Positions 117-30,482 of a DNA stretch of 64,000 nt are shown in pieces (the stretch's first letter is position 1; the number at the start of each line of letters is the position of its first letter). The stretch covers positions 288,001 to 352,000 of the forward strand of contig JAHQWG010000016.1 in the NCBI GenBank assembly GCA_029856045.1, in the 5' to 3' direction. The translations under genes were made by a program, and so were the position numbers. Source of the DNA: Promethearchaeia archaeon (lineage in GTDB: Archaea > Asgardarchaeota > Lokiarchaeia > Sigyniarchaeales > SOKP01). The notes under the pieces were generated by a model. That model did not search any database, was not told the DNA's origin, and worked only from the letters and a program-made list of their open reading frames with translations.

Positions 117-143
117 TTTTATTTAAATCTTTATTATTAGAAA

Positions 144-2564: not shown

Positions 2565-2577
2565 TTAAACTAATGGA

Positions 2578-3996: not shown

Positions 3997-4497
3997 TTTA
4001 TAATTCTTCCTCCAAAAACATAATATTATTTCCTAAACAAATCATAATCTTAAAAAACGACAATTTAAGAAAAATTAAATTTAAATGATATTTCGTTCAT
4101 TTTAATGTTAAAAATATTTACTATGATATTTACTATGTAATATATCACATGTATGAATTTATATTTTAATATTCTTATTTACAAAAAAAAATGAAATCTT
4201 ATACACAACTCGTGTCTCTTTATATTAAATTTTAATTTTAATATAACCAAAGATAAAAATATTCCTTTAATTTGATTTAATTAAATTTTTTCTTTTCTAC
4301 ACCCTTCTTAATTTTTAATTCTTTTTGGATATTTTTCAAAATGAAAGTATTTTAAAGTAGTGATAAAATTACTAAAACTAAAATATTTGATTTATTAAAA
4401 ATCATAAAATTGAAAATAATAAAATTATTATTTAGAACTGATAAGATTTTATTGATAACTTTATTTTTTAAATGGAATAAAATGGTTTTTTATAAAA

Positions 4498-5835: not shown

Positions 5836-5856
5836 AAACATCTTTAAATAATTAGA

Positions 5857-6813
5857 TTAAAAGATTATCTTTTTTACTTCTTCTAAAAGAGTTGGTAAAT
5901 TAGATTTGATTAAATCGACATTTCCTTCTTCCCTAGTTGATTTTAAGCTTAAAAATAACCGTATTGTTTTTTTCTCACCTTTTGTTGGATGAATTATGAA
6001 GGTTTTAACATATGTGAAATTATCCTTGAAAAAATCTAACTTCTCATCAATTTTAACTTTATTATTTATTAAAGCTTGAAAAAATTCGAGATCTTCATTT
6101 AGTTTAGGTATTATTTTTATATCATACTCTTTTAAATCAATTACATCCTTATAATAATCGGAAATAATCAATCCTTTATGAGAGAATAATAAAACATAAT
6201 CGCAAGAGAAATTTTCTGCGAATTCTTTTAATTTATTATCCGCACTTTCTAAAAAAAGAATTTTATTCAAAGAAGAGGATAATGCTTTTGTGAGAGAGTA
6301 AATATTATAAATAGATGTATCGAAAAATCGAAAATTCATTTTAGGATTTGATTTTTGAATTAAATCTACTAACATTCTTTTCCTTTCTTTGAACTCTTCA
6401 AGGTTTTTATAATTGGGATCGAATTTATGAAAACAAATATTTATCTCATTATTATATTCCAGGTTTCGAAAAATATTTAATAATTCATGTAAATAATTAA
6501 CAGAAGTTTCGAAACGCATTTCATCTTGGATATCAATTAAATATAATATTGCATCAGTATCCTCAAAATATATAGGGTGATTTACGTAAATATTTCTAAA
6601 TTTCTCTTGTCCTCCCATATCCCATAAATTCAATTGATGTTTTCTTAAGATTATGCAAGTAGAATAATCTATCTTAATGGTTGGTTTTAAGTCTTCAATC
6701 TTCTCCCAGAAATTATATTTCTTCCTTATCGCAATTAAATAACTGGACTTTCCTGCATTATCTAATCCTGAAAGAATGATCTTATATTCCTTCAAATCAC
6801 TATGTTGCGCCAT
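5857..6813 (-). CDS. Rag/Gtr-like small GTPase with C-terminal roadblock/longin-like domain
   Basis: GLDNAGKS, PTIKI, WDMGGQ, Rag-type G4 HKFD and G5 TSIY; C-terminal 'YVLLFSHKGLIISDY' roadblock-like strand. Confidence 0.8.
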   Translation of the reverse strand: MAQHSDLKEYKIILSGLDNAGKSSYLIAIRKKYNFWEKIEDLKPTIKIDYSTCIILRKHQLNLWDMGGQEKFRNIYVNHPIYFEDTDAILYLIDIQDEMRFETSVNYLHELLNIFRNLEYNNEINICFHKFDPNYKNLEEFKERKRMLVDLIQKSNPKMNFRFFDTSIYNIYSLTKALSSSLNKILFLESADNKLKEFAENFSCDYVLLFSHKGLIISDYYKDVIDLKEYDIKIIPKLNEDLEFFQALINNKVKIDEKLDFFKDNFTYVKTFIIHPTKGEKKTIRLFLSLKSTREEGNVDLIKSNLPTLLEEVKKIIF

Positions 6814-6903
6814 TTTTTAAAACATCTTGAATTTTTCATAAAATATTTTTATAATTTAATTAAGTATAATGAAATAAATAATGATATATATTTTATTATT
6901 TAA

Positions 6904-7884
6904 ATGGCTGATTTTATTGGCATTTTATTGACAATTGACGCAATCTTTTCATGGGCTTTTGCCAGTTTAGTATATAAATTCGGCTTACAAAAAATAGAAG
7001 CTCCGCAAGCTCTTTTACCTAGGTTATTATTTGTTTCCCTCTTTACTTTTGTTATATCCTTGTTCTTTGGAAATTATTTCATATTCACTGGATTGAATTT
7101 TCAACAATTAATGGATTATTTTATCGCTTGTATTATTTCTGGAGCTACCGTTACAATTGGAGATCTTCTATATTTTCATTCATTAAAAAAAATTGATGCT
7201 TCTCGAGCTTATCCCCTAAGTTCATTATCTTTAGTTTTTGTTTATCCATTCGCAGCAATCTTTTTTGGAGAAATAATCACATTTTCAATTATGATAGGGG
7301 GCATTATTATTTTAATAGGTGCTTTTTTTTTAAGTTCAAAAGATATCCCTAAGAATGAAATATTAAGCTCAAATAATGTAAATAAAAACTCTAATAACCT
7401 AGAAAATAAAATCGAAGTAAAACAAAAATTATCTGAAGATTTATTCATAGGAGTAATTTTAGCTTTGTGTACGGCATTCTTCTGGGCTTTAGCAATTATT
7501 TCATTCAATCAAGCCAGAATTCTCGCAAACGGAGAAGTTTTTGCTACAAATTTTTTTCGAATTATAAGCGCAACAATATTCATTTCCATACTAGGAATGT
7601 TTAAACACAAATATTATGAAGGATTTAAAAAAGAAAATAGAATCCATGTAAAATATTTTATTTATATAGCTATTGCTGGCTCATTATCTTTGGGTTTTGC
7701 AGATTCATTGTTCTATAAAGCGGCTGAAATAAATGGATTAATATTAACTTCTACAATAACTGCAAGCACACCTTTAATTCAACAACTTGCCTCAGTTTTA
7801 ATATTAAAAGAAAAATTTCGTAAGAGATTTTTAATTGCCGTAATACTAATTATTTTAGGAAATTACATTATAATTTTCTTATAA
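6904..7884 (+). CDS. DMT/EamA-family transporter
   Basis: About 10 hydrophobic segments in two EamA repeats; GDLLYFHSLKKIDASRAYP. Confidence 0.88.
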   Translation: MADFIGILLTIDAIFSWAFASLVYKFGLQKIEAPQALLPRLLFVSLFTFVISLFFGNYFIFTGLNFQQLMDYFIACIISGATVTIGDLLYFHSLKKIDASRAYPLSSLSLVFVYPFAAIFFGEIITFSIMIGGIIILIGAFFLSSKDIPKNEILSSNNVNKNSNNLENKIEVKQKLSEDLFIGVILALCTAFFWALAIISFNQARILANGEVFATNFFRIISATIFISILGMFKHKYYEGFKKENRIHVKYFIYIAIAGSLSLGFADSLFYKAAEINGLILTSTITASTPLIQQLASVLILKEKFRKRFLIAVILIILGNYIIIFL

Positions 7885-7908
7885 AAGATTGATAATATTT
7901 TTTTAATT

Positions 7909-8343
7909 ATGAGTGAAAAAGGCTATAAATTTCTCGACCATATCTCAGACGTCCAAGTTAATTGTTGGGGTTTAGATCTAAAAGAAGCGTTTTCACAAGC
8001 AGCACTAAGTTTATTTGATACGATTACAGACATCAGAAAAATTGATAAGAAAATCTCAAAATCGATTCAAATTACAGCAGAGGATAAAGAGTCCCTACTA
8101 TTTGATTTCTTAAGTGAATTTTTATATATTTTTGATACTGAAAACCTGATTTTTTCCGAGATTAAAGTGATTAATATTGATGAAAGTCATGATGGATATA
8201 TGCTAAATGCCCAAGTAATAGGTGATTTTTTTGATTTGAAAAAGCATTCAAGCGGAATAGAAGTTAAAGCAATAACGTATTCATACATGAAAATTGAAGA
8301 AAAAAAAAATAAAACAATAATTGAAGTAATTTTTGATATCTAA
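7909..8343 (+). CDS. Archease
   Basis: YKFLDHISDV, EAFSQAALSLF, LLFDFLSEFLY, EVKAITY, C-terminal FDI. Confidence 0.95.
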   Translation: MSEKGYKFLDHISDVQVNCWGLDLKEAFSQAALSLFDTITDIRKIDKKISKSIQITAEDKESLLFDFLSEFLYIFDTENLIFSEIKVINIDESHDGYMLNAQVIGDFFDLKKHSSGIEVKAITYSYMKIEEKKNKTIIEVIFDI

Positions 8344-9812
8344 CCTTTGACTACGCCTATAGGAACTAATCTTACAATCTTTTTGACTATTCCAAGATCA
8401 TGACTAACTTGAACGACCTGATCGATATTCTTATAAGCGCCGGGTGCTTCTTCTGCTAAAACTTTCATTGAAGCTGCTTCAACTGTAATTCCATGTCTAG
8501 CCAGATCATCCTTGATTTTTTCGCCCCAGAATTTTTTCTTCGCTTTTGATCTAGATAATTGCCGACCAGCTCCATGTGCGGTTGATCCGAAAGATAACTC
8601 CATAGCCTTTGGTCCTCCAACACATAAATAACTTGCTGAACCCATAGTGCCTGGGATCAAAACCGGTTGCCCCACTGCTTTATATTCTTCGGGAATTTGG
8701 GGATGACCGGGAGGAAAGGCTCTTGTTGCACCTTTTCTGTGAATATTTAATTTCATTTTCTTACCATTAATTTCATGCTCTTCAATTTTTAAAATGTTAT
8801 GACAAACATCGTATATTAAATTTAATCCAAGTTCTATCGGATCTTTTTTTAAAATTTCCTTAAATGATTCCCTAACCCAATGTGTAATTAATTGACGATT
8901 ATTCCACGCAAAATTGGCAGCACAAGCCATCCCACTTAAATAATCTTTTGCTTCTGGTGTATCTGCCTTAAGATAAGCAAGCTCCCTATCAGGAACTACA
9001 ATTCCATATTTCTGCATAGCCTTATCAAATATTCTTAAATAATCTGTTGCAATTTGATGCCCCATTGCTCTCGAGCCAGTGTGCACCATCACTGTAACTT
9101 GCCCTTTTTCTTCTATCCCCAATATTTTTGCAATAGATGCATCATAAATTTCATTTACTTCCTGAATTTCTACAAAATGATTTCCAGATCCCAATGAGCC
9201 GATTTGGCGGATTCCCCTCTCCTTAGCTCTTCTTGAAACCTTGTTAGAATCGGCTCCCTTCATACATCCATTTTCTTCACAAAATTTTCTATCCTCTGGG
9301 TATCCATATCCATTTTCTATCGCCCAGTTCACACCATTTTCTAAAGCTTTATCTAAATGATCATAATTAATATTTAATTTTCCTTTGGAACCCAATCCAC
9401 TCGGAACATTTTTGAAAAGAGATTTAACCAAATGTGGTAATGCATTTCTTATTTCTTCCCTTTTTAGATCTGTGCGGAGGAGTCTGACCCCGCAATTAAT
9501 GTCATACCCAACACCACCAGGTGAAACCGCCCCCGTTTCTGCATCTGTTCCAGCAACGCCGCCGATACAGAAGCCATAACCTTGATGTGCATCACTTAAA
9601 GCAATAACATGTTTTACTATTCCATCTAAACATGCTACATTAGTTATTTGATCAAGAGTTTTATCTTTCCTTATATTTTCCATTAAAAAATCATTTGCAT
9701 AAACTATTGCAGGCACTTTCATTTGAAATTTTTTTGTTTCGCCGTATATTCTAGAAAATTTTGCTTGAGGAGATATTAAAAAAATATTTTCTGAAATTTT
9801 TTTTATGTCCAT
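8340..9812 (-). CDS. rtcB: tRNA-splicing ligase RtcB
   Basis: DAHQGYGFCIGG, GVGYDINCG, GSGNHFVE, HTGSR, HRKGAT, STAHGAGR, EEAPGAYK. Confidence 0.97.
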   Translation of the reverse strand: MDIKKISENIFLISPQAKFSRIYGETKKFQMKVPAIVYANDFLMENIRKDKTLDQITNVACLDGIVKHVIALSDAHQGYGFCIGGVAGTDAETGAVSPGGVGYDINCGVRLLRTDLKREEIRNALPHLVKSLFKNVPSGLGSKGKLNINYDHLDKALENGVNWAIENGYGYPEDRKFCEENGCMKGADSNKVSRRAKERGIRQIGSLGSGNHFVEIQEVNEIYDASIAKILGIEEKGQVTVMVHTGSRAMGHQIATDYLRIFDKAMQKYGIVVPDRELAYLKADTPEAKDYLSGMACAANFAWNNRQLITHWVRESFKEILKKDPIELGLNLIYDVCHNILKIEEHEINGKKMKLNIHRKGATRAFPPGHPQIPEEYKAVGQPVLIPGTMGSASYLCVGGPKAMELSFGSTAHGAGRQLSRSKAKKKFWGEKIKDDLARHGITVEAASMKVLAEEAPGAYKNIDQVVQVSHDLGIVKKIVRLVPIGVVKG

Positions 9813-10087
9813 AATAAGTTTATAAGATTAAAAAACATAAAAAAATTCTTTATAAAATAAAAAAAAAATCCATCTTTTTCTTAATTCATAGGAATTTAAT
9901 CCCTATTGAAAAAAAAATCTTAAAAAAATCTTAGTACAGCATGGTATTACTTCATTATTTCCTCACAAAATAAAGATTTAAAGAATATATGAATAAAATA
10001 TTTTTTTAAATACAATTATAAATACAATTTTTTATTAATTATTTAAAAATAAATGAAGTTATTTTCTAGTTTATAGGTGTATCTAAC

Positions 10088-10825
10088 ATAATTCATAGTT
10101 TCTATTTAATCCATCAACTTACGGGAATCTGCATGATTTATAGGAAATATGGAGCAATTGAATTAAATCAAGATCTAGTTTCGGGGTTTCTAACTGCTCT
10201 AAAAGATTTCGCAAGCGAGATAAGTAAAGGTAAGGGGCAACTCAAGATTGTAGACATGCGACTCTTCAACCTAATCCTTGTTTTTAAAGCAGGAGTCTTA
10301 GTGGTGGTTGCAGCTGATAAAAATGATTCTAGAGAAATCGCTCAAGCGAGACTTGAAGAAATAGTAGATGTTTTTATGGAAAAATATTCTGAATACATAG
10401 GTGAAGATAATTGGACAGGAGATATTCGTATATTTAAAGGATTTGAAACAATTATTGATAAAATTCTCGAAGTTGGAAAGGCAAGTGAAGTCCCAATTAG
10501 AATTCCCATTTTAAAAATATATAAGAAAGATTATGAAAAATCTCAAAAAAAGATAGCCAAAAAAGGGTTAATTCTTCAAGAAGTAGATTTTAGATCAACT
10601 ATTGAAGGAACTTACAAACCTGAATGGACCTCAAAGAGATTACCTAAACAAGTTGTGAGTCAAGGAATGCTTTCAGAACAAGAATATGAAATTTCCCATC
10701 TATGCGACGGATTTCATACTTTAGAAAAAATTGCAGAAGAAGCGGGTATTCCAGAAAACGATATAGGGTTAATTATTGATGAATTAGATGAGCTTGGATT
10801 GCTAGAATTTATAATAATTCAGTAA
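10088..10825 (+). CDS. Longin domain + C-terminal winged-helix protein (NPRL2-like); start probably ATA at 10088
   Basis: IHSFYLIHQLTGICMIYRKYG and DLVSGFLTALKDF longin pattern; C-terminal CDGFHTLEKIAEEAGI..LDELGLLEF wHTH; AGGTG SD just before the ATA. Confidence 0.75.
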   Translation: MIHSFYLIHQLTGICMIYRKYGAIELNQDLVSGFLTALKDFASEISKGKGQLKIVDMRLFNLILVFKAGVLVVVAADKNDSREIAQARLEEIVDVFMEKYSEYIGEDNWTGDIRIFKGFETIIDKILEVGKASEVPIRIPILKIYKKDYEKSQKKIAKKGLILQEVDFRSTIEGTYKPEWTSKRLPKQVVSQGMLSEQEYEISHLCDGFHTLEKIAEEAGIPENDIGLIIDELDELGLLEFIIIQ

Positions 10826-10934
10826 TTATTAATAATTTTTCAAAGTTTGAACTAAATCTATTTTTTATCCTAAAATTTTTAAATTTCATACTTCTTAAAT
10901 TATTTAAAACTTATATTAAGAAGAGATTATAAAA

Positions 10935-11252
10935 ATGACGTATATGATTTTCATCTCAACTGTACCTAATCTTGAAGAAGGAAAGAAAATTGCACGTTTT
11001 CTAGTAGAACAAAAAATTATTGCATGCTGTAATATCATTTCTAATGTGATTTCAATATATGAATGGGAGGAAAAAATTGAGGAAGGCAATGAACTTTTAT
11101 TAATCATTAAAACCAAAAAAGAAAACAGTAAAAAATTAATTGATATTATAAATAGCATACATAGCTATGAAGTTTCTGAATGTATAGGTTTTGATATTAC
11201 AGAAGGATCAAAGAAATATTTAGATTGGATGGATAAAATAATAAAGATTTAA
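10935..11252 (+). CDS. cutA: Divalent-cation tolerance protein CutA
   Basis: IACCNI, SIYEWEEKIE, LLIIKT, HSYEVSE, YLDW. Confidence 0.95.
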   Translation: MTYMIFISTVPNLEEGKKIARFLVEQKIIACCNIISNVISIYEWEEKIEEGNELLLIIKTKKENSKKLIDIINSIHSYEVSECIGFDITEGSKKYLDWMDKIIKI

Positions 11253-11260
11253 TATATCTT

Positions 11261-12100
11261 ATGCAAGTTCATTGGATTTTTCAAATTGATTGGTTTTTTT
11301 GGGGCACAATTATTATTATCTTATTAATTATTTTCCTAATCTCAGTTAAAATTTTTAAGAATACACATCGTTGGAGAAATTTTTTATCGAATCCTTTGAT
11401 TATGGTAAAAAAAAACAAGAATTTTGAAATTCAATGTGGAGAACAAGAAATTTTTAAAATTTCATTCACATTATTTGAATCTATAATCACTGATGTTGCT
11501 GATAATAAAGATAAAAAGACTTCAAATCTTCTGATTATTCTCAAGAAGAGGAGATATAATACATATCCATTTGCAGAAGCTCTTGCTTCAATCGATCTTA
11601 AGGTAATTTTTATAGATTTCAAAAAAATTAGGAAAATTGAAGGTAAAAAACTAGTTAAGATAAAAATTAGTGGGTTATTAATTGATAAAATTTCAAAAGC
11701 GATTTATATTCATTTTGTTAAATTAGGAGATATTCCTAAGTACCAAAAAATTGTCTTTCTCTTTCCTAATCTTACTAATCATTTTTTAAAAATCTCTACA
11801 TTAACAAATCTTTTTGACAAATTTTTTCTGATATTAAGTAATTTTTCAGCGAATTATGAGATTTTAAAGAACTTTTTAAATCAAGACATAATTGACATAA
11901 AGAATCTTTATTTTATTATCCCATTAAAGAGATTCTTAAAAAAAAATGAAGATCAATTGAATAAAATTAATAGATTAAAAGAGAATTATAAAATACACGA
12001 AAAAAATTTTTTAATTCTTGAAAACTCTTTTAAATCGTTAAAAAATTATGAAACAATCATTATTGGCTTTATTTTAAATAATATTTTTAAAAAACAATAA
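11261..12100 (+). CDS. Hypothetical protein with N-terminal membrane anchor
   Basis: Hydrophobic stretch at residues ~12-32; the rest is possibly a degenerate alpha/beta-hydrolase-like fold. Confidence 0.55.
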   Translation: MQVHWIFQIDWFFWGTIIIILLIIFLISVKIFKNTHRWRNFLSNPLIMVKKNKNFEIQCGEQEIFKISFTLFESIITDVADNKDKKTSNLLIILKKRRYNTYPFAEALASIDLKVIFIDFKKIRKIEGKKLVKIKISGLLIDKISKAIYIHFVKLGDIPKYQKIVFLFPNLTNHFLKISTLTNLFDKFFLILSNFSANYEILKNFLNQDIIDIKNLYFIIPLKRFLKKNEDQLNKINRLKENYKIHEKNFLILENSFKSLKNYETIIIGFILNNIFKKQ

Positions 12101-12121
12101 GTATTAACTAAAAAATGTTCG

Positions 12122-12829
12122 ATGACAAAAGAAAAGATTTCGATGGAATATTCAAATAAGGTTATTTATGATAAAAACCATTGGGATATATTAACTCATA
12201 AACGAGATCGAGCAAAAAAGATTTTATCCATGTTTTATAAAGAAGGTTTAAACCCTTTGGTGTTTGGGAGTTTAGCACGGGGAGATGTGAAAAAGAGTAG
12301 TGATATAGATATAATTTTTCCCGATAAAACTCCTACATATAAATTAGAGATTATTATTGAAAAAAATGGAGAATATATTATTGCTAAGGACATAATTCAA
12401 GCAACTCCAGGAGACACAATCAAGGCAAATATTTATATATCCGAGCAAGAATGTTTAACAGTTCCTTTAACGAAATTCATGAAAAAATCTTTTCAATTCT
12501 ATCAATTTGGTGGTTGTCTTGATTTAGATCAGCTTTTAAAAAATGAAAGGGTTCCAGGCATAGACAAAAATTTAATATTAAAGATACCATCCAAATATGG
12601 CCATAATGAGCTTGATCTTAAAAATAATGAATTATTTACTTCGAAATTATTAAATATTGATATGGAATTTATACTTCAAAGAATACGTGTTTTAACTAGA
12701 AGGGATAAAGTTGGCAGAACTGGAGTTTTCCTACATGAAAAATTAAATTTAGAGGATAATTTTGAAAAAGTGTTAAAGAATATTAGTGATCGAAATTCTC
12801 TTGTGAGAAGGATACTTATGAAAGACTGA
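12122..12829 (+). CDS. Nucleotidyltransferase-domain (Pol beta-like) conserved archaeal protein
   Basis: FGSLARGDVKKSSDIDI; IIQATP; FYQFGG; RVPGIDK; RIRVLTRRDKVGRTGVF. Confidence 0.88.
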   Translation: MTKEKISMEYSNKVIYDKNHWDILTHKRDRAKKILSMFYKEGLNPLVFGSLARGDVKKSSDIDIIFPDKTPTYKLEIIIEKNGEYIIAKDIIQATPGDTIKANIYISEQECLTVPLTKFMKKSFQFYQFGGCLDLDQLLKNERVPGIDKNLILKIPSKYGHNELDLKNNELFTSKLLNIDMEFILQRIRVLTRRDKVGRTGVFLHEKLNLEDNFEKVLKNISDRNSLVRRILMKD

Positions 12830-21167: not shown

Positions 21168-22274
21168 TTGGAAGAAATGGAACAGCATAAGCAATTATCC
21201 ATTGAATTAGATAAAAATCTTATAAATAAAGTATTTGAAAATGTAGAGATGCGCTATATTCTATTATATCTTTACATAGTTCGAAATGATATGTTAAAAA
21301 ATTTATCAGATGAATCTTGGCTCCATTCATTTAAAAGATTAATGAATTTGGATGAAATTCTCAAAAGCGATTTGGAATTATATTCAAATAAAGAACTGAC
21401 CGAAATATTAATAGATTTAGGAATAATTAAAAATTTAAGATCTTTAAAAGAACTGGAAAAGAAAGAAGATGATTTTTTAATTAAAACTTTAGAACCAATA
21501 AGAATCGAAGATAATAAGATAATTGTTCCAGAAAATACATTATTTCCTATTATCTCAAAAAAATTTCCATTTCTAACAAAACGAAATTTTCACTATGCCA
21601 TCTCAAGGTTAAAAGGTATAATGTGCGAAAATAGCGATGTAATTCATCCTTTTCTATTTGAAATTGGTAAGGAAAATTATTTATTAGCAGACGATCTATA
21701 TGAAATTTTAGATGATTTAGGAAATCCATATCAAACAATAAAGGTCGAAATCACTATTAGTGAATTTTATAACAGGTTTAAAGAATTATTAGAAAAAGTC
21801 TCGATTTTCTTAGAACTATATGATCCTTTATTAAATAAAAAATCAAATCTCAGAATTATCAAAGAGGCAATAGACAATAATAAAGTCATTCTTGAATTTA
21901 TGCAAGAAAAGGTAAAAAAATTGCCTGCTAAATTTGATCTGGAGGATGTAGTAGATAAAGAAAATGAAATTTTTAAAAAATGGCATTCTATACTTATAAA
22001 TTTACTTAAAAAACGGAATAGATTAAATGAAATTGATGAAGAATTAAGTAAAATTAAAAATTACTATTCTGGAAAGGGAAAAAAATATACCTATTTAGAA
22101 TTTATTACTAAAATATCATACAATGAAGATAATATCTTAAACCAAATTAAAGATAGACTGATAGAATTAAGAGAAGAATTAGTAAATATCAAAAAAGAAG
22201 TATCTAAATTTGAAAAAAATGAAATAAAACTGCTTAATTTAGATTATGAACGATTTAGAATTATAAATGAATAA
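21168..22274 (+). CDS. Hypothetical protein, winged-helix-like N-terminal/middle part plus C-terminal coiled coil
   Basis: ENTLFPIISKKFPFLTKRNFHYAISRL..ENYLLAD wHTH-like segment; heptad-rich C-terminus; first gene of a tight operon. Confidence 0.7.
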   Translation: MEEMEQHKQLSIELDKNLINKVFENVEMRYILLYLYIVRNDMLKNLSDESWLHSFKRLMNLDEILKSDLELYSNKELTEILIDLGIIKNLRSLKELEKKEDDFLIKTLEPIRIEDNKIIVPENTLFPIISKKFPFLTKRNFHYAISRLKGIMCENSDVIHPFLFEIGKENYLLADDLYEILDDLGNPYQTIKVEITISEFYNRFKELLEKVSIFLELYDPLLNKKSNLRIIKEAIDNNKVILEFMQEKVKKLPAKFDLEDVVDKENEIFKKWHSILINLLKKRNRLNEIDEELSKIKNYYSGKGKKYTYLEFITKISYNEDNILNQIKDRLIELREELVNIKKEVSKFEKNEIKLLNLDYERFRIINE

Positions 22275-22290
22275 ATAAGGAAGGTGCCCG

Positions 22291-23262
22291 ATTATTAACT
22301 GCCCTGTATGTAACGTTGAGATGGAACAACTCGTTCAAGAAATATTTCAATGTCCAAAGTGTAAAAAAATTATTAAAGGACAGATTAAAGAAATTAAAAA
22401 AAAGAAAGAAGTTGCTGTTGGAGAAATTCAAGAAGGAGATTATTTTCATAACAACGCTAGTTTAAATAAGAAATATGAAATTTGTGAAAAAGGAATTACA
22501 ATATCTAAATCTCCAAATAGGTGGGTGGCAGCATTACTCTGTCATAGCTCCTATTTAAGCAGCTCTAAATATATCAGACTTAGTTGGTGGAAAAAGGAAA
22601 TAAATACACATGCAGGCTTTTTCAAAATAACTGAATCTATAGTATTGGATAATTTAATCAAATCCTTAAAAAAAATAAATTCTTCATTTGATGAGTATTG
22701 GGGTAATTTTAAAGGATTTGAAAAAAAAAAAATAGAAACAGAAGAAAAAGCAATTCAAAATGAGCGTCTAAAAATTCTAAAGTATAGAATTCTCGAAAAT
22801 AAAATTTGCCCGAATTGTAGTAAAAAATTATCATTAAGTAAAAGAAAAACACATTATGAATGTGAACACTGTGGCGAGATCATCATCTTGGAATCTCATA
22901 ATGAACCTATTTTTAATATTGATCCTAAAGATCTCTCATTAGAATTCTCAACAAATTTTCCTATCAACTTTTACCTCCCCGTAGCGGGTATTACTATAGA
23001 ATGGTTAATGAGTTTATGGAAAGCTATAGTTGTTATATATTCAAAAGATAACCCCAATAAGAAATGGTTAAGATTCTATGCTTGGGAAAGGAATTTGCAA
23101 CAACTGCTAAAATACGGATATTATGAAGCCGGTGATGGAGGACAATTATCTTGGACTACAAAAAAAGGAACAGGCTCACCTAATATTTTTGATAAATCAG
23201 AAGTCCCTATTCTAATAGATGCTCTAAAAAAGCTTCAGAAAGAAATAGGTTGGGTTAAATAA
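22291..23262 (+). CDS. Two Zn ribbons alternating with two PC4/PUR-like repeats; start probably ATT at 22291
   Basis: CPVC (upstream of the ATG)..CPKC; CPNC..CEHC; internal repeat GITI-x5-W-x-A...K-x2-R-x3-W. Confidence 0.7.
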   Translation: MINCPVCNVEMEQLVQEIFQCPKCKKIIKGQIKEIKKKKEVAVGEIQEGDYFHNNASLNKKYEICEKGITISKSPNRWVAALLCHSSYLSSSKYIRLSWWKKEINTHAGFFKITESIVLDNLIKSLKKINSSFDEYWGNFKGFEKKKIETEEKAIQNERLKILKYRILENKICPNCSKKLSLSKRKTHYECEHCGEIIILESHNEPIFNIDPKDLSLEFSTNFPINFYLPVAGITIEWLMSLWKAIVVIYSKDNPNKKWLRFYAWERNLQQLLKYGYYEAGDGGQLSWTTKKGTGSPNIFDKSEVPILIDALKKLQKEIGWVK

Positions 23263-23302
23263 GATATAAATTTATACAAAAGATTATGATGTGATTGAAT
23301 AA

Positions 23303-24445
23303 ATGAGTGGAATCGATAATCTTGAATGGGAAAAATTGTTGACTGAATTCTCTAAAAATGTTGATAAATCTCTCAAGAAACTTGAAGAAAGAGATATTGA
23401 TAATATTCCTGGTGCTAAACAAGCCTTGGTTGAGAGATTACGAGTTATGAGAGATTATTTTCCACAAAATAACGGAGATCTCTTTATAAAATCAATTAAT
23501 GAGAAAATTCAAAATGCATTTTTCCCAAAAACCAAAGATCTAGCTGAAGCATTTGAGCTAATTTTAAAGTCACGCTCTCATGATCAAGATTTTATAATAA
23601 ATGAATTAATTAATGGTTTTATATCATCAAGAAGCAAAACAATTGCTTTAAATGTTCAAGGAACTGTTATTGATAGAATGGTTGAGGCATTTAGTAAAGG
23701 ACCGGATTTTCAAATTGTAGATCATCAATTCTATGCAATGTTTTCCGACCCCAATAAAGCACGCAAATATGTAAAAGAAAGTTTGCAAGACCTTGTGGAT
23801 TTATTTGGTTTAGAAGCGAAAGAATTAATTGTTGAAAAAGATAAAAGGAAAAGCGAGCGAAAAGTTTATACTTTTTACACGTTTCCCGAAAAAATATTAG
23901 AAATTTTAGAAGGTGAATATGTTGATACTGATGATGTACTCGGAGAAAAAAGGGTTTCAGAAAAATTCGATAAAACAGTTTTCATATCTTTGTTTTTAGC
24001 CAATATATCAGTTCACAGAGATGATTTAAAGAAAATAGGTGGAGTATATACTATAAACGGCATCTGTAGCATATTTAGTTTAATTCTTTTGATCTCGCTT
24101 ATGCCTAAATTGGAGGTAAATGAGACCAATCCAGTCTTAAGAGACCCAACTTATAACCCTGAGACAATGAGTATTATTCCAAAATCATGGATGATGAAGG
24201 AAATTCTGTTGGATTTATTGGAACCCCTAATAAATATTGTAGCATATAGATTGGGTGGCGGAGAATGGTTAAAATCGGTTGAAACCTCTGAGGTTAAAAA
24301 AAAGATACACAATCAAATACGGTTTCTTATCAAAGACGTAAATAAATGGGTATACGGACAGTTAACAAGAGTGGAAATTCCCATATTCATTGAAATCTCC
24401 AATATTTTCGCTGAGGTATTGATTGACTATTCTACAGGGGAGTAA
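23303..24445 (+). CDS. Hypothetical protein (380 aa, mostly helical)
   Basis: Long ORF inside the operon; GATGTGA SD-like motif upstream. Confidence 0.75.
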   Translation: MSGIDNLEWEKLLTEFSKNVDKSLKKLEERDIDNIPGAKQALVERLRVMRDYFPQNNGDLFIKSINEKIQNAFFPKTKDLAEAFELILKSRSHDQDFIINELINGFISSRSKTIALNVQGTVIDRMVEAFSKGPDFQIVDHQFYAMFSDPNKARKYVKESLQDLVDLFGLEAKELIVEKDKRKSERKVYTFYTFPEKILEILEGEYVDTDDVLGEKRVSEKFDKTVFISLFLANISVHRDDLKKIGGVYTINGICSIFSLILLISLMPKLEVNETNPVLRDPTYNPETMSIIPKSWMMKEILLDLLEPLINIVAYRLGGGEWLKSVETSEVKKKIHNQIRFLIKDVNKWVYGQLTRVEIPIFIEISNIFAEVLIDYSTGE

Positions 24446-24471
24446 AATTAAATACTTAGGGGGAAATTAAT

Positions 24472-25740
24472 ATGGTTAGAGAAAGATGGACAGACATTTT
24501 AGCTAGATACTTAACATATTTAAGTCATCTGGTTCCAATTCTCAAAGAAACAAAGAAAACTGTCCAAAATATGAGTTTGGAAGTGATGATGGACGTAAAG
24601 ATTTTTGATAAGATTAAAATGGACGAAGAAAAACGATTAGTGAAGAAAGTGAGGGCTTTATCCGAATTCTCGGCATATTATAGAGGTGAAGTATTTGAAA
24701 ATATAAAAAATTTTATATACAAATATGCTGAGGATTTAGAACCTATAGATATTAAAGATTATCTAATTGAATTTTTTGATGAATGCATAAGTGCTTTAGA
24801 AATATTAATGAATGTTACAAACCCAGATCAAAAAAAATTAAATTCCACATATTTATATCTTCTTTACAAATATTTAGAAGATCTTTTATTACCTATAGGT
24901 AAAAATTTTGAAGAAATTTACATGAAGTTGAATAAAACATCAAAAAATTGGCATGAATGTCAAAGGTATATGATGATTCCTCATACATATTATAGGGAAA
25001 CTGTGGATAACCCCGATTTCTTCGAAATTCCCGGTATTTCTCCAAAATTATACCAAATAATTAATAATATAACCTCTTTATACAACTTGGATCCTAATTA
25101 TTATCCGTGTCCTGAAGATTCTAACATAGAAATTCCAGTAGTCTTGATTGAAGATGTTTTTGAAGCATTTATTGATAATATTGCTCATGAAGAGCAAGAA
25201 GCAGTTGAAAAAATTTGTGAACGTTTAGGATTAAGAGTTCTAGATGGGATTTTTCTTGCTCCCAAGTATGATTTTATAGATGTTCTAATTAAACTTGATT
25301 TCCTTAGAGAGAATAAACAATCTGATGGCAAGATTAGATTAATACCTCAATTCAGTAATGAAACTTTAATTTTAAGTTATCTAGCGTTCGTTTCTTTCCG
25401 TCGAGGTTTTTTATCTAAAGAATTAATTAATTGGATTTCTATGACATTTGCGTTCATTATTTTTTCAACGATTTTAAAATCTCAATTAAGTGATCATAAT
25501 ATTTTCTATCCTATTTTTACTGGTTTGAAAACTCAAGAAAAAGTAATACCTTATATGATGAAACTTCTATGCTTTAATAATTATTTGAAATTAGATAGGA
25601 TGAAAATACGAGATTCTGTCCAGTACAGAAAAGAAATTTTTAATTTTGCAGGATCTAGCATAGATTGCATTAAGCAATTAATTTTAGATTTAAGTGAATA
25701 TTTAAAAGAAATAAAAAAAAAAAAAAAAGAAGGGGTGTAA
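24472..25740 (+). CDS. Hypothetical protein (422 aa, helical)
   Basis: Long ORF, AGGGGGA SD; ends in an A16 tract (KKKKKEGV*). Confidence 0.75.
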   Translation: MVRERWTDILARYLTYLSHLVPILKETKKTVQNMSLEVMMDVKIFDKIKMDEEKRLVKKVRALSEFSAYYRGEVFENIKNFIYKYAEDLEPIDIKDYLIEFFDECISALEILMNVTNPDQKKLNSTYLYLLYKYLEDLLLPIGKNFEEIYMKLNKTSKNWHECQRYMMIPHTYYRETVDNPDFFEIPGISPKLYQIINNITSLYNLDPNYYPCPEDSNIEIPVVLIEDVFEAFIDNIAHEEQEAVEKICERLGLRVLDGIFLAPKYDFIDVLIKLDFLRENKQSDGKIRLIPQFSNETLILSYLAFVSFRRGFLSKELINWISMTFAFIIFSTILKSQLSDHNIFYPIFTGLKTQEKVIPYMMKLLCFNNYLKLDRMKIRDSVQYRKEIFNFAGSSIDCIKQLILDLSEYLKEIKKKKKEGV

Positions 25741-25746
25741 GAAAAA

Positions 25747-26823
25747 ATTACATATTCAGATGATGAAATTAAAGAAAGGCTTGATAAGTATGGAACGGTT
25801 TATTTACCAAATGAAATTATAGAGAATGTTGATGATATTTTAGGAAATGAGATTCTAAAGGAAAGGCTTGAAGATTTTTTCAGTTCCTTAAAAAAATATA
25901 GTGAAGTTGTTGAAAAATTAAAAAAGACTAAATTAGTCCCAAATTTAACTGTCCTCCTATATGGACCACCTGGAACTGGAAAAACTTCTTTAGCTCGAGC
26001 ATTTGCAAAGGAATTTGATATCCCATTGTGTGTAGTAGAGTCTGACAGATTAGTTTCTGCATTATTAGGCGATACCGTTAAAAATATTAGAAAAGTTGTG
26101 GAATTATCAGCTCAGATTGCGGAAGAAAATGGAGCTTTTATATTGTTTTTTGATGAAATTGATGCAATTGCATCCGAAAGATCGAATATTCACGAAGTAG
26201 GCGAAATTAAAAGAGCTGTAATATCTTTCTTACAAATAATTGATAAAATAAACTACTTTGGAACACCATTAGCAATTTTAGGTGCTACTAACCATCAAGA
26301 CCAATTAGATTCTGCAATTTGGAGGAGATTCACATTTCATTTGAAATTTGATTTTCCTACATTTCATCTCAGGAAGAAAATAATTGAGGCTTTTATTAAT
26401 AAAATTAGTAACGCAAAAATTGGAGTAGATGATGTAATTCTTGTTAGTTTAAACAAAGAATATGCATTATTAAAATCTAAGGAAGAAAAATTAAAGCCTA
26501 TAGTAAGAAATGAAAAATATTCACAAGATTTGGATGAATTGTGGAATGATAAAAAAATTATCGAGAATAGAGGAATTTTATTTTTAACGCGTGGATACAC
26601 AGGTGCAGATTTAGAGCGTGGAGTGAGAGTTGCTCTGTTTAAAGCATTAAAAAATGACATTTTAACCTATGAAAATTTTACCCATTCCTTAGAATTAGTA
26701 GGAGGTACTAAAATCCATGTTGAACAACAATATTTTTTGAGTGTTTCTGAAAGGAAATCTTCCAGGGATAAAAAAATATCAAGAATAAACAACAACAATC
26801 TGGAAGGTCCTCGTGAAATTTAA
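25747..26823 (+). CDS. AAA+ ATPase (classic AAA clade, single module); start at ATT 25747
   Basis: Walker A YGPPGTGKT at 25960-25986 lies upstream of the ORF-track start; pore loop LVSALLGDT, Walker B ILFFDEID, GATNH, SRH LDSAIWRRF, GYTGADLE. Confidence 0.9.
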   Translation: MTYSDDEIKERLDKYGTVYLPNEIIENVDDILGNEILKERLEDFFSSLKKYSEVVEKLKKTKLVPNLTVLLYGPPGTGKTSLARAFAKEFDIPLCVVESDRLVSALLGDTVKNIRKVVELSAQIAEENGAFILFFDEIDAIASERSNIHEVGEIKRAVISFLQIIDKINYFGTPLAILGATNHQDQLDSAIWRRFTFHLKFDFPTFHLRKKIIEAFINKISNAKIGVDDVILVSLNKEYALLKSKEEKLKPIVRNEKYSQDLDELWNDKKIIENRGILFLTRGYTGADLERGVRVALFKALKNDILTYENFTHSLELVGGTKIHVEQQYFLSVSERKSSRDKKISRINNNNLEGPREI

Positions 26824-26884
26824 TAATTAATTTTTTTAAAAATCTCCTATTGATTATATAAAAATACAAGTAAAAAATCGAAAG

Positions 26885-27952
26885 ATGGAATCAGAGAACA
26901 TAATCTTTTCTGCAGAAAGAATAAAAGGATTAACTAATCCTATTGATAAAATTCGAGGAAAATTAAATTTAATTAATAAATTATATCTCAATTATAAAGA
27001 AACTCTAAAAAATTTACTTAAAAAACCCAATCTAATAGAGAATGATAGAATAAAATTCTTTAATGATTTAGATAACACATTAGAAGAAATATATTCAAAA
27101 TTATCCAAAAACTCTGAACTTAACTTAGAAAATTGGTTGTCAATTAAAGATTTACTTTTATCTGAATATATTCTTTCAATAAAAAACATTTTAACAGAAA
27201 AAAAAATTTCTCAAGATTCTCTTAAAAAAGTTGGTATTTCATTAATTAAAAACAAGAAAGTATCATCTTTTTTAGAAAAAACAAGTTTTATTTTTTCACT
27301 CGATGTTGATTTTTGGGAATCAATAGTTAATTCATTAAAAAATAACCCTGATTTTCTAAAAACCCTAAATAAAATAAAAAAATTTTGTCAAAATGAGAGG
27401 GAACGAATATTAAATATTGAACTAAATAAAATTCCTAAAAACATCGACTATAAAATTATCAATGAGTTTAAAAAAGAATTCAGAAAAAACAAAATTTCTT
27501 TTAAAGAATTCATGATAACTTCAGAATCCAGATTTCCTAAAACTAAATTTGCCACCCAAAAGATTACTTTAGACACAAAAAAGAAAAAGAATGAACTTGA
27601 TATATTAAAAGAAAAACAAGAGACACGATTCAAATCTTATGATAAATTATTTACTCTTTCCGAAGATGAATTTCAAAGATTAAAACGTAAAAAAAAAAGA
27701 AAAAAATTAGATTCTTTATCTAAATTAGAAAAAAAAGAATACCCTCCTGATGATAAAAAAAAGGAGAAGGACAAGAAAGAAGAATCAACCCAAACCACAA
27801 AACAAGATATATTTAGTAGAGATATAATAGAAAATAATGAAGCTGATATCGATCCTTTAGAAGTTATTAGAAAAAGAAAGCAAAAAAAGGAAGAAGAATT
27901 TGAAAAACACTTAAATAAAATTCAAAAAAAAAATAAAAGAGGTTCAAACTAA
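26885..27952 (+). CDS. Hypothetical helical protein with highly charged basic C-terminal tail
   Basis: Operon context; K/E-rich C-terminus (RLKRKKKRKK, RKRKQKK). Confidence 0.7.
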   Translation: MESENIIFSAERIKGLTNPIDKIRGKLNLINKLYLNYKETLKNLLKKPNLIENDRIKFFNDLDNTLEEIYSKLSKNSELNLENWLSIKDLLLSEYILSIKNILTEKKISQDSLKKVGISLIKNKKVSSFLEKTSFIFSLDVDFWESIVNSLKNNPDFLKTLNKIKKFCQNERERILNIELNKIPKNIDYKIINEFKKEFRKNKISFKEFMITSESRFPKTKFATQKITLDTKKKKNELDILKEKQETRFKSYDKLFTLSEDEFQRLKRKKKRKKLDSLSKLEKKEYPPDDKKKEKDKKEESTQTTKQDIFSRDIIENNEADIDPLEVIRKRKQKKEEEFEKHLNKIQKKNKRGSN

Positions 27953-29514
27953 TTAATTCTGGTTCATTTGTAATAAAAATAAAAGATTTTTCAGTGGAAA
28001 TTAAAAATAAATTTAATATTATTCAAGGCAAATTTCTTTCTCAGGATTTAAATCAACTTCAATTGGGCAATTATATCCACCTTCTTGATGATGTTCCAAA
28101 AATAAGCTTAGAAAAGTTACTGATTTTATATAAAAATAATTCAAAAGGACAGAAAAATCTAATTGACAATATTAATTTTATTGAATTTATAGCAAAATAT
28201 ACTCAAATAACTCAAAAAGATATTAAATTTTTAGATAAATATATCTCTTTTTTAGAAAGTTGTATTTCACTATTAAGATTAAACCAGCTCAATCTTGAAA
28301 AAAAAAAATTAAAAACCGAACTAAAAATTGCCCAAGAAAGAAATAAATCAGCAGAAATTTCTACTAAAATAACTCTATTAAATAAATTAAACGAATCAAT
28401 TAAAGAATACAACACTAGATTAAAACTTTTTGAAGAGGATTTTTTACCCATCAAAAATCAAAAAAAAATGCTTGAAGACAAACTTGGGAATTTAAAAAAA
28501 ACACAAATTGAATTTAGAAAAGAACAAAAGGATATTTTTAATAAGATTAATATTCTTACTCGAGAAGAAGAGAGCCAAAACAATGATCAAAATGAAAAAA
28601 TTGAGACCCTAAGGAAAAATGCTAAAATTCTAAGAGATAAAATTGATGATATCAAGCAAAAAATTGAAAATTCCCAATATAAATTAAATCAGAATTTGCC
28701 GAAATTTAAAGAATTTGATAAAATTTATCATAACCTAAAAGAAAATCTTGAAATTGATAAGAAAAAAATGAGAAATCTTCGAATAGAATTAGAAGAAGTT
28801 ATTGATTTAAATAAATTGGATGAATTAACAGAATCTGGTTTAAAAGAACTATCTTATATAAGACCGATAAGCTTAATCAAATCAAATATTGATAACATCA
28901 CTAATGAAATAATAAAAATTGAAAGTTTCAATCAAAAGTATTTTAAAAATAAAAATAATCTCTTAATAAAAGATTTAAAGATGTTTAAATCCAATTTAGA
29001 CAACTTTTTTTCGAATCAGTTGGAAGAATTCGATAGTAATGAGCTTGAAAGCAAAATAAAATCTTTAAAGAAATTAGGTATTTGGCTATATAAATTCCAA
29101 AAATTACTAAATGAATTTTTGGAAACGATTAATTTAAAAATCTCTATTGATTTTTTTTTAAATTTGACACCAAATTTTGCTAAAAATAGTCAGATTATTA
29201 TAAATTTCAAACGTTTTAAAGAAGAAGCTATCATTTATGATAATTTAACTACTCCTGAGAAGGTATTTTTTATAATATGTTTTTACTTAACCATTGAAAG
29301 TCTTAAAAATAAAAGAAACATCATTTTCACAAATCTTATAATACCTGAGGATTATAACAAAAAAGGTTCTATTTTTAGAACTTTAACAAAAATTATGCCT
29401 ATTTTTAATGAAAGTCCAGATTTAAAGGAGAAATCATTAACTTTTCTAATTTCTGGATTCAAACTAACAAAAGATATCAAAAATGTTCAAATATATAATA
29501 TAAATAATACTTAA
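27952..29514 (+). CDS. SMC/Rad50-like coiled-coil protein with degenerate ABC head motifs; start probably ATT at 27952
   Basis: N-terminal IKIKDFSVEIKNKFNIIQGK; ~250-aa coiled coil; C-terminal YDNLTTPEKVFFIICFYLTI (cf. LSGGEK) and IIFTNL (cf. Walker B), FLIS (H-loop strand). Confidence 0.65.
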   Translation: MNSGSFVIKIKDFSVEIKNKFNIIQGKFLSQDLNQLQLGNYIHLLDDVPKISLEKLLILYKNNSKGQKNLIDNINFIEFIAKYTQITQKDIKFLDKYISFLESCISLLRLNQLNLEKKKLKTELKIAQERNKSAEISTKITLLNKLNESIKEYNTRLKLFEEDFLPIKNQKKMLEDKLGNLKKTQIEFRKEQKDIFNKINILTREEESQNNDQNEKIETLRKNAKILRDKIDDIKQKIENSQYKLNQNLPKFKEFDKIYHNLKENLEIDKKKMRNLRIELEEVIDLNKLDELTESGLKELSYIRPISLIKSNIDNITNEIIKIESFNQKYFKNKNNLLIKDLKMFKSNLDNFFSNQLEEFDSNELESKIKSLKKLGIWLYKFQKLLNEFLETINLKISIDFFLNLTPNFAKNSQIIINFKRFKEEAIIYDNLTTPEKVFFIICFYLTIESLKNKRNIIFTNLIIPEDYNKKGSIFRTLTKIMPIFNESPDLKEKSLTFLISGFKLTKDIKNVQIYNINNT

Positions 29515-30045
29515 TTGAGAAAGAGAACAATGAACAATCCAAATATAAACAATATTGATAATTTAGTGAAAAAATTTTGTAAAATTTTTCTCATTAATGA
29601 AAAAAAAATGATAAGGGAAAGAGATCTTATTGAAATGTGCTCAAATCCAGAAAATTTTGATAATATTATTAAAAAAGTATATAATAATCTAAATAATATT
29701 GGATTTGAATTAGTTAAAACCTCGTACCTAGAAGAAAAATATTATATATTAACAACTGAAGGTAAAGAAAAAGCCTTATCTCCTATTCTTTATGGAATTC
29801 TCACATTAATCGTTGCTTTAAATAATGAAATAGGTGAAAATTTAAATTATTTCGAGTTAAAAAATATTCTAAAAGATGTATGGGAAAATGTTGAATATTT
29901 AATAAAAAATAATTATTTAGCTCAAATAAAGAGTAGAGATCATCATCTAATTAAAATTACTCCTATAGGTAAAGGTGTTTTAAAAAATATAATTTCTGAA
30001 ATTAATTTAAAAAAAATTTTAGAAATTTTTGAAAAGACAAATTAA
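29515..30045 (+). CDS. Tandem winged-helix kite-like protein (Nse3/MAGE/ScpB-like)
   Basis: FDNIIKKVYNNLNNIGFELVK..KYYILTT (WH-A); ILYGILTLIVAL..VEYLIKNNYL..IKITPIGK (WH-B); directly follows the SMC-like gene. Confidence 0.65.
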   Translation: MRKRTMNNPNINNIDNLVKKFCKIFLINEKKMIRERDLIEMCSNPENFDNIIKKVYNNLNNIGFELVKTSYLEEKYYILTTEGKEKALSPILYGILTLIVALNNEIGENLNYFELKNILKDVWENVEYLIKNNYLAQIKSRDHHLIKITPIGKGVLKNIISEINLKKILEIFEKTN

Positions 30046-30482
30046 ATACTCTTACCTTCCTTAAGATCAAGGACAAATTGTTCAGAAATCTTCTGTATTC
30101 TTTCTGCTGAGGGCCCTTCCCCAATCACTTCGATTTTTCCATCTTGTTCCTTAACCTTTATTTTCCCATTTAGAATACTTATTATAGATAATTCACTTTG
30201 ATAATCAACATGTCCTTTAGGGAATATTTTAGCAATTCGATCTGCCAATGCTTCCATAGGAAACGGCTCTTCTTCCACTGTAATCATTTTCCATACACCT
30301 GAATGCATAATAACCTTAGGAATTACTGCTCCTTTCTCGTTTTTAGCATTCTCAATTATAATATCACCAGAATCGGAAACACCTTTAAGAGTTCCCACAA
30401 AAAATTTATCATCAGATATATGAATTTTTACAAGTGCATCCAATAGATTACCAAGTTCTTGATTATAATTTCTTAGCATCAT
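30042..30482 (-). CDS. Sm-like (Lsm) protein with C-terminal domain (SmAP3-like)
   Basis: Sm1 VKIHISDDKFFVGTLKGV..DIIIENAK, Sm2 KVIMHSGVW, plus ~75-aa C-terminal domain. Confidence 0.8.
   Translation of the reverse strand: MMLRNYNQELGNLLDALVKIHISDDKFFVGTLKGVSDSGDIIIENAKNEKGAVIPKVIMHSGVWKMITVEEEPFPMEALADRIAKIFPKGHVDYQSELSIISILNGKIKVKEQDGKIEVIGEGPSAERIQKISEQFVLDLKEGKSI

Follow-up and report, generated by a model that had tools for sequence, protein, structure and literature searches.

Here, we analyzed a window of 64,000 nucleotides (nt) of DNA from a Lokiarchaeial genome (GenBank contig JAHQWG010000016.1; C27:288001-352000 in our numbering of the source genome, which comprises 3.34 Mb in 55 contigs). 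The window has a G+C content of 22-35% and holds, at 21168..30045, an operon of eight co-directional genes, g1 to g8, with intergenic gaps of -1 to 61 nt. The last two genes, g7 and g8, are the subject of this work. The former encodes a short protein resembling SMC (structural maintenance of chromosomes) proteins but lacking their ATPase motifs and hinge, and the latter a small protein with tandem winged helices (WH) of the kite type. The operon looks like an offshoot of the SMC machinery that has not been described before: no description of g7, g8 or the operon was found in the literature on Asgard kites, kleisins and MAGE proteins and on SMC-like proteins. The same eight genes were present in the same order in all 14 loci extracted from other genomes, and homologues of the operon genes come under names such as Lokiarchaeota archaeon and Promethearchaeota archaeon. 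The surroundings were constant in these loci as well, with Elf1 upstream, Lsm, a CobW-like GTPase, an AN1-finger protein and S-adenosylmethionine (SAM) synthetase downstream, and fibrillarin/Nop5 nearby.

The distribution of both genes was scanned in 400 genomes of the phylum. We found g7 in 122 of 134 genomes of the window's family and in 11 of 14 genomes of a second family of the same Lokiarchaeial order. Elsewhere there were only weak matches, and those listed fall in the coiled coils of frames of SMC/Rad50 size (~1000 amino acids, aa). Similarly, g8 was detected in 115/134 and 12/14 genomes of these two families and in none of the other families, and it adjoins g7 wherever both were located. 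The operon is a core, chromosomal, order-specific unit and not a mobile island. Across the order, the products of g6 and g7 are only ~30% identical to those of the window, compared with ~61% for g5 and the values listed for g3 and g4 in Table 1.

Table 1. Features of g7, g8 and the other operon genes, and two variant loci (positions in the window unless a locus is named).
Feature	Position	Strand	Description
g7	27952..29514	+	520 aa, ATPase-dead, hinge-less mini-SMC; 506 aa if started at GTG 27994
Walker A position, FNIIQGKFL	28012..28038	+	residues 21-29; strand and shortened loop without GK[ST]
Coiled-coil apex	28549..28587	+	~residues 200-212; variable, gap-prone turn without hinge domain and without CxxC
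LTTPEK	29245..29262	+	residues 432-437, at the place of the ATP-binding cassette (ABC) signature LSGGE/QK
NIIFTNL	29317..29337	+	residues 456-462, Walker B strand without Asp-Glu; strand 456-460 in the model
g8	29530..30045	+	kite-like tandem winged helix; 171 aa from ATG, 176 aa from TTG 29515
g1	21168..22274	+	368 aa, first operon gene, family unknown; kept in 14 loci
g2	22321..23262	+	313 aa, two Cys4 zinc ribbons and Trp-rich domains; invariant Cys pairs
g3	23303..24445	+	380 aa, unknown family; ~62% identity, best-conserved operon gene
g4	24472..25740	+	422 aa, unknown family; ~58% identity across 14 loci
g5	25747..26823	+	358 aa, intact single-domain AAA+ ATPase, probable ATT start; Pfam AAA match
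g6	26885..27952	+	355 aa, basic, helical; stop overlaps g7 start; candidate linker
G135 variant	L062 (G135:C1:1134000-1148500) 824-12137	minus	g1, g3, g4, g5 and full SMC
G141 variant	L073 (G141:C66) 6-10988	minus	g1-g5 including g2, and full SMC

The g7 reading frame is open from 27937 to 29514, and the mechanical open reading frame call begins at GTG 27994. We took ATT 27952 as the likely start of the gene, because homologues in other genera carry ~14-20 extra N-terminal residues relative to the GTG version and because residues 6-17 form the first two head strands in the AlphaFold2 (AF2) model. This ATT shares one base with the TAA of the preceding gene, and a GAGGT lies 8 nt upstream of it. 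The motifs named in the preliminary description of this DNA, FNIIQGKF (residues 21-28), LTTPEK and NIIFTNL, were all present in the protein, and a motif scan of the window protein detected neither a P-loop of the GxxGxGKS type (G-x4-GK[ST]) nor a CxxC. In hhalign comparisons, the IIQG strand of g7 aligned to the ...TILTG strand directly before the GKNGSGKS P-loop of Smc5/6-like SMCs, LTTPEK aligned to the SSGQK/LSGGEK signature, and IIFSNL aligned to the Walker B strand AIDEF. Binding of ATP by g7 would not be expected, since the P-loop appears shortened as well as mutated. The absence of a hinge and of a zinc hook, which had also been proposed, was borne out: the apex is a short loop, marked in the model by a break of the helix at residues 205-210. 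N200, just before the apex, is the sole residue invariant in all 54 aligned g7 sequences.

The AF2 model of g7, built on an alignment of eight sequences, reached a predicted local distance difference test score (pLDDT) of 77.8. It comprises three N-terminal strands, short helices, a long helix (64-204), a turn (205-210), two further helices (211-283 and 306-392) and an alpha/beta C-terminal half, in which a long helix starts right after LTTPEK and a strand is formed at NIIFT. The predicted arm is antiparallel, with ~140 residues per strand, and would extend for ~20 nm, about one third of a true SMC arm. Foldseek searches against the PDB placed g7 closest to Rad50 (E 1.6e-7), the head and coiled coil of P. 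yayanosii Smc (1.7e-6) and Smc5/6 (8e-6), all with probability 1.0; further matches, mostly with probability 1.0 as well, were Lamassu LmuB, cohesin, condensin, MukB and JetC. The VIA-align results for the whole protein were dominated by unrelated helical rods (PI3K p85, chemoreceptors), and only rows covering both termini are informative. Among them, the Smc5/6 head 8hqs_B gave a Z of 11.6 over 233 residues, with a root-mean-square deviation (rmsd) of 4.7 A and model residues 1-520 covered, and the second such row was again a Smc5/6 head (8t8e_A, Z 11.5). For the coiled coil, Z was 13.6 with the Smc5/6 arm and 13.2 with the P. yayanosii Smc coiled coil, values in a range that is common for helical rods. 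Structure prediction together with both search methods thus gives an ABC-head fold, and the SMC-type arm and head suggested in the preliminary description hold for the model.

Sequence models were far less responsive. Pfam models of the SMC type matched none of 54 g7 members beyond coiled-coil noise, NCBIfam SMC_prok_B reached 20 bits in the coiled coil only (cut-off 567), and searches of g7 against PDB sequences and PADLOC models returned nothing useful. Profile comparison with hhalign gave weak alignments: the C-terminal head segment of g7 aligned to the heads of Smc5/6-like archaeal SMCs over 130 columns in the correct register (E 6.5e-4), to an SMC-like protein encoded on contig C41 of the same genome (E 2.2e-4, the best single-sequence match) and to the two canonical SMCs of this genome (E 0.015). 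Of the characters of the SMC superfamily, g7 shows an ABC-type head assembled from N- and C-terminal segments and a long antiparallel intramolecular coiled coil in its model, and it lacks Walker A, the signature and Walker B, a hinge or zinc hook, and a match to any sequence model of the superfamily. The model points to a lineage-specific, non-catalytic descendant of the SMC superfamily with a split ABC head of the SMC/Rad50 type and a short antiparallel coiled coil, and we consider this probable as part of the overall explanation developed below. An Smc5/6-like archaeal SMC is its most likely source, a derivation that we propose tentatively.

We then turn to the conservation of g7. A word-based search recovered nine relatives and a profile search of 1.84 billion representative proteins recovered 108, about 65 of which are full-length (480-575 aa). 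None of these 65, whether close or distant, has a Walker A G-x4-GK[ST], and none has a CxxC. The exact LTTPEK is found in 42 of them, more distant ones having LKRxEK or LPPEEK, and LTTPEKVFF and NL..P...NKxGS..RT..K..P do not vary in the alignment of the close set. In comparison with a same-genus genome, the ratio of nonsynonymous to synonymous substitution rates (dN/dS) was 0.345 for the whole of g7, 0.22 for its C-terminal head half and 0.13-0.23 for the operon genes that are better conserved. Because Walker A is missing from all 65 representatives, LTTPEK is kept and dN/dS is 0.345, the motif-degenerate state is ancestral to the family and maintained by selection. Loss of every catalytic motif might also be expected of a pseudogene decaying from a once-active SMC, and no other operon gene evolves as fast as g7 (~29% identity across the order). 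The conservation data refute this explanation, which we regard as scarcely credible: an unbroken frame is present in over 130 genomes, the dN/dS values are low in the protein and lower still in its C-terminal head, and the replacement motifs LTTPEKVFF and NKxGSxxRT do not vary in the close family. The preliminary description was therefore right to call g7 a conserved pseudo-ATPase rather than a product of recent decay. One genome of the second family, G134 (L063 = G134:C24:5000-18500, 10080-12116), retains the operon layout with a very divergent g7 of 678 aa, which has no Walker A, carries FVYYFESDLS at the Walker B position and is missed by the family profile. This divergence beyond detection by the family profile shows how fast g7 evolves.

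The following gene, g8, begins 0-15 nt after g7, depending on whether TTG 29515 or ATG 29530 is used. The ATG is the likely start because homologues begin MNN..., with the TTG as the alternative. The AF2 model of g8 (27-sequence alignment, pLDDT 86.3) consists of two winged helices, WH-A at about residues 9-81 and WH-B at about residues 90-148. Foldseek gave MAGE-G1/Nse3 as the best match (E 5.3e-6), followed by chains of the Nse1-Nse3-Nse4 complex (7dg2; 2.3e-5 and 8.5e-5) and ScpB (2.8e-4); MAGEA4 and MAGE-A11 were also among the top matches, and the best 13 are all Nse3/MAGE, Nse1 or ScpB (E 5e-6 to 8e-4). VIA-align, which is independent of Foldseek, ranked Nse1 first (Z 9.8, 152 residues, rmsd 4.0 A), and its other two-domain matches were chain E of the Smc5/6 holocomplex (Z 8.3, 164 residues) and ScpB (Z 7.5, 151 residues). 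Sequence searches were again nearly silent. PF01454 (MAGE) hit one of 27 g8 members, below the cut-off (E 0.028), and PF04079 (ScpB) hit none of the 27, its genome-wide search finding two other genes and not g8. Neither single-sequence nor profile searches against PDB sequences returned anything, MAGE and Nse3 included. PADLOC models gave no match, hhalign against the genome's own ScpB-type kites gave nothing, and hhalign against the kites of two variant loci (G135 and G249, see below) gave only E 0.02 over 147 columns. Of the features that define a kite, three were found in g8, namely two tandem winged helices in a small protein, a structural likeness over the whole protein and an SMC-type gene as neighbour; dimerization and binding to the middle of a kleisin, which also belong to a kite, would be putative in g8. 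The assignment of a kite fold is supported by the model. Of the earlier suggestion that the gene next to g7 is Nse3/MAGE-like, the kite fold stands, with Nse3/MAGE-G1 and Nse1 as its best matches; a specific assignment to Nse3/MAGE does not, given the single sub-threshold PF01454 hit and the about equally good matches to ScpB and Nse1.

The structural matches of g8 also admit a different, non-chromosomal explanation, in which g7 would be a coiled-coil tether, g8 a protein-binding tandem winged helix in the style of ESCRT-II or cullins, and the AAA+ ATPase of the operon a remodeler of a cytoskeletal or membrane assembly. Subunits of ESCRT-II are indeed matched by g8, as is the cullin WH-B (E 2.5e-3 to 3.5e-2), and g5 belongs to the classical Cdc48/Vps4 clade. 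However, the kite matches are better than those to ESCRT-II by two to three orders of magnitude and cover both domains; ESCRT-II ranks there with JetB and MukE (E 2.5e-3 to 3.5e-2). In addition, the neighbour of g8 has an SMC-type head, the canonical partner of a kite, and in variant operons the corresponding position is taken by a genuine SMC with a kite. We therefore consider the non-chromosomal explanation unlikely.

These variant operons come from different genera. In G135 and G141, divergent copies of g1-g5 (g2 not being listed for G135) are followed on the same strand by a full SMC of 1057 or 1071 aa, which is Smc5/6-like and has intact motifs (GKNGSGKS, SSGQK, IDEFD). After this SMC come a multi-WH protein of 322 aa and a protein of 313 aa, and, in G135 only, a further kite-like protein of 176 aa; the G141 contig ends before that position. 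Neither g6 nor g7 was found in G135 and G141, and G135 retains only a 74-aa fragment of g8 (L062:12624-12845). A third genome, G249, has the canonical operon and a second locus (L074, G249:C11:15000-33000; 5223-11559, minus strand), where a g5-like AAA protein of 326 aa lies directly upstream of an SMC of 1015 aa (GPNGAGKS, LSAGQT, IDEF), two proteins of 289 aa and a kite-like protein of 190 aa. An HD-domain protein is encoded ~2.3 kb upstream of this second locus on the opposite strand. The full-SMC type is infrequent, occurring in 5 of the 400 genomes (E <=1e-30). As G135 and G141 show, g6-g8 can have their position taken by a real SMC-kite set, and the AAA+ family of g5 is tied to SMC-type proteins, since an SMC follows a g5-like AAA gene in all three genomes.

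The genome of the window encodes, besides g7, two true SMCs (1195 and 1476 aa) and, after each of them, a PF04079 (ScpB) kite. A third SMC-type protein lies on contig C41 (G000:C41:117059-120521; L066 2059-5521) as a 1154-aa frame that is ~200 bp from the contig end and carries GPNWSGKS, LSGGQRS and VLDEAE; a search of the genome with PF02616 (ScpA) found nothing. It has been proposed in the preliminary description that g7 might heterodimerize with an active SMC; such a pairing, head-to-head or arm-to-arm, would make g7 the pseudo-ATPase half of an asymmetric Smc5/6-like heterodimer. Degenerate ABC sites do often pair with a competent site, three motif-intact SMC-type proteins are available in this genome, and the former signature surface, LTTPEK, is conserved. 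Yet the arm of g7, with ~140 residues per strand and without hinge or hook, stands against partners of 1154-1476 aa; two of these SMCs have an adjacent ScpB-family kite of their own; and g6-g8 give way to a full SMC in G135 and G141, with g7 and g8 absent or a remnant, instead of accompanying it. Given an arm that is short and has no hinge, true SMCs that have kites of their own and this replacement, we regard the proposed pairing as highly improbable.

The two true SMC-kite pairs agree with the picture given by van Hooff et al. [quoted passage not shown] The same study described a third, Nse3-related kite beside real SMCs in a few Hodarchaeales; that kite adjoins real SMCs and not the g7 family. 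Its kite set was recruited with hidden Markov models (HMMs), and kites that could not be recruited in this way were explicitly excluded, so g8 would escape the set.

Several known systems resemble g7-g8 in part. First, the eukaryotic Smc5/6 with its kites Nse1 and Nse3/MAGE and the archaeal SMC5/6-related operons share with g7-g8 the split ABC head, the antiparallel coiled coil and the kite neighbour, and they provide the best head match of g7, the best kite matches of g8 (Nse3/MAGE-G1 and Nse1) and the strongest of the weak profile signals. Unlike them, g7 has no Walker A, Walker B, signature or hinge, its arm is about one third as long, and no kleisin is recognizable; moreover, g8 is missed by MAGE and ScpB models, and both genes belong to an operon of eight, together with an AAA+ ATPase and five orphan proteins. 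Second, bacterial and archaeal Smc-ScpAB likewise combines an SMC-fold protein with a small tandem-WH kite, and ScpB is matched by g8 (E 2.8e-4; Z 7.5), but g8 has no PF04079 match, g7 is ATPase-dead and hinge-less, and the genome has two Smc-ScpB pairs besides. Third, the archaea-specific SMC-related proteins (ASRPs; coalescin ClsN, Sph1/2) are, like g7, archaeal SMC-superfamily proteins that are shorter than SMC and coexist with SMC and Rad50. Their definition asks for Walker A and Walker B and, in most cases, a zinc hook; candidates without the motifs were discarded (Yoshinaga et al. 2022, PMC9389158); g7, which lacks all three, falls outside that definition. Fourth, Rad50/SbcC, Lamassu LmuB and Wadjet JetC rank high among the Foldseek matches of g7 and are short-armed without a globular SMC hinge, but they are active ATPases with nucleases, whereas g7 is a core chromosomal gene without nuclease partner, zinc hook or ATP site. 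Finally, C. elegans SMCL-1 is reported to be an SMC-like non-core protein that binds and regulates condensins (PMC5373644); as a eukaryotic condensin-binding regulator it would serve only as a precedent for an SMC-like protein outside the core SMC subunits.

The AAA+ ATPase g5 has intact motifs (GPPGTGKT and DEID) and, in profile searches of the PDB, matches p97/Cdc48 domains (E 2e-40). Among named families, it scores best with the anti-phage ATPase IetA/IteA (184.8 bits with NCBIfam, cut-off 510; 202.5 bits with PADLOC), and no IetS-like protease partner was found in the operon. This match raises the alternative that the operon is an anti-virus or anti-plasmid defence system, similar to Lamassu or Wadjet and equipped with an IetA-like ATPase. 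The likeness of the g7 model to LmuB and JetC fits such a role, and so does the rare, patchy full-SMC version of G249 (5/400 genomes) near an HD-domain protein. On the other hand, the canonical operon is single-copy, occurs in ~90% of the genomes of two families, is always flanked by one set of housekeeping genes (Elf1, Lsm, AN1 finger, SAM synthetase, fibrillarin/Nop5) and is under purifying selection. Furthermore, no nuclease or protease effector was found, g5 is far below the IteA cut-off of 510 bits, and g7 and g8 match no PADLOC model. Distribution and synteny in particular make a defence role very unlikely.

Whether g7 and g8 form a complex was addressed by a three-chain prediction in which g8 was scored as the partner of g7 (residues 15-520) and g6 (residues 1-300). 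The combination scored 0.42 (runs 0.42, 0.35 and 0.58), compared with 0.16 for the best control, in which g7 was replaced. Of 80 solved complexes, 58 reached the mark used for such scores, as did 2 of 110 mismatches; at scores <=0.60, only seven of these 80 did so, together with both mismatches. The prediction gives weak support and may be taken as a hint of a g7-g6-g8 complex only. The conserved C-terminal part of g6 is basic and seemingly helical, with no obvious winged helix in the alignment, and g6 is perhaps a candidate linker with a kleisin-like role.

Taken together, we consider it probable that g7 is an SMC-derived passive scaffold with g8 as its kite-type partner. In such an arrangement, g7 would form a passive rod, probably a dimer, and its former ATP-site surface (LTTPEK and NL..P...NKxGS..RT) would now serve to bind a protein. 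The head or neck of g7 would carry g8 and perhaps the basic g6, arranged like the kite and kleisin of Smc-ScpAB or Smc5/6, and g8 and perhaps g6 would provide the nucleic-acid contact. Any energy-dependent step would lie with the separate AAA+ ATPase g5 and not with the SMC head. Several points weigh against this explanation. The hhalign probabilities between g7 and SMC heads are low (10-45%), so descent from a Smc5/6-like SMC stays tentative, and tandem winged helices occur in ESCRT-II and cullins too. Sequence and profile comparisons revealed no similarity of g6 to kleisins, to any family, to the PDB or to the neighbours of full SMCs, and five of the eight operon proteins are without a known relative. 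The three complex runs share 0% of their contacts, with a partner pLDDT of at least 71, and DNA binding by g8 or g6 is suggested by analogy.

What defines SMC complexes is the ATP-driven engagement of their heads. A family that is maintained by selection with an SMC head, an arm and a kite but without ATP site and hinge suggests that this architecture can be reused as a passive scaffold. Its Lokiarchaeial hosts are close relatives of the eukaryotic ancestor and already have two or three true SMC complexes, and the operon may offer a lead on accessory factors of Smc5/6-type complexes as well as on the function of five conserved orphan proteins. A more far-reaching version, in which the operon would encode a new SMC-derived machine with a passive SMC rod and a motor moved to g5 together with four orphans, the G135 and G141 loci being ancestral or intermediate, seems doubtful at present. 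If true, the AAA+ family of g5 would be a previously unknown partner of Smc5/6-type systems in the closest archaeal relatives of eukaryotes. The relevance to the origin of Smc5/6 that the preliminary description had attached to g7 was upheld only as the weak sequence signal to Smc5/6-like archaeal SMCs. Being confined to one order, the g7 family is no ancestor of Smc5/6 but a derived side branch, and it has no bearing on that origin.

The remaining operon genes yielded few relatives. Profiles of g1, g3, g4 and g6 found nothing in the PDB; g3 and g4 had no family match in Pfam or NCBIfam; members of g1 and g6 had none in Pfam; and hhalign of g1, g2, g3, g4 and g6 revealed no similarity to the proteins encoded after the full SMCs of G135, G141 and G249. 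For g2, there were only weak zinc-ribbon matches (Pfam, NCBIfam and PDB profile). After each of its Cys4 ribbons comes a stretch rich in Trp (RLSWWK; WLRFYWW.RD), which shows strong conservation throughout the order, and the pattern of the sequence looks like an internal duplication.

The g5 frame contains no ATG, GTG or TTG between the upstream in-frame TAA and residue 94. ATT 25747, which lies 9 nt after GGGGTG and follows the TAA of the preceding gene directly, is the likely start, judged by its sequence context, and a same-genus genome (L061) has TTG at exactly this codon. Stop-codon recoding, considered for the TAA before g5 and for the lack of a canonical start in g5 and g7, was rejected because the ATTs are suitably spaced after Shine-Dalgarno-like motifs (GGTG and GAGGT) and because of the TTG at the g5 position in the same-genus genome. 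The Lys-rich tail of g4 is encoded by a run of 16 consecutive A (25713-25728), which lies at the 3' end of this gene and just before the start of g5. In the same-genus genome L059 this run is interrupted and one base longer, and the site is thus prone to insertions and deletions. At the other end of the operon, a 146-aa Lsm-like protein with an Lsm_C domain (30042-30482, minus strand) converges on g8, the 3' ends overlapping by 4 nt, and this neighbour is also present in distant relatives.

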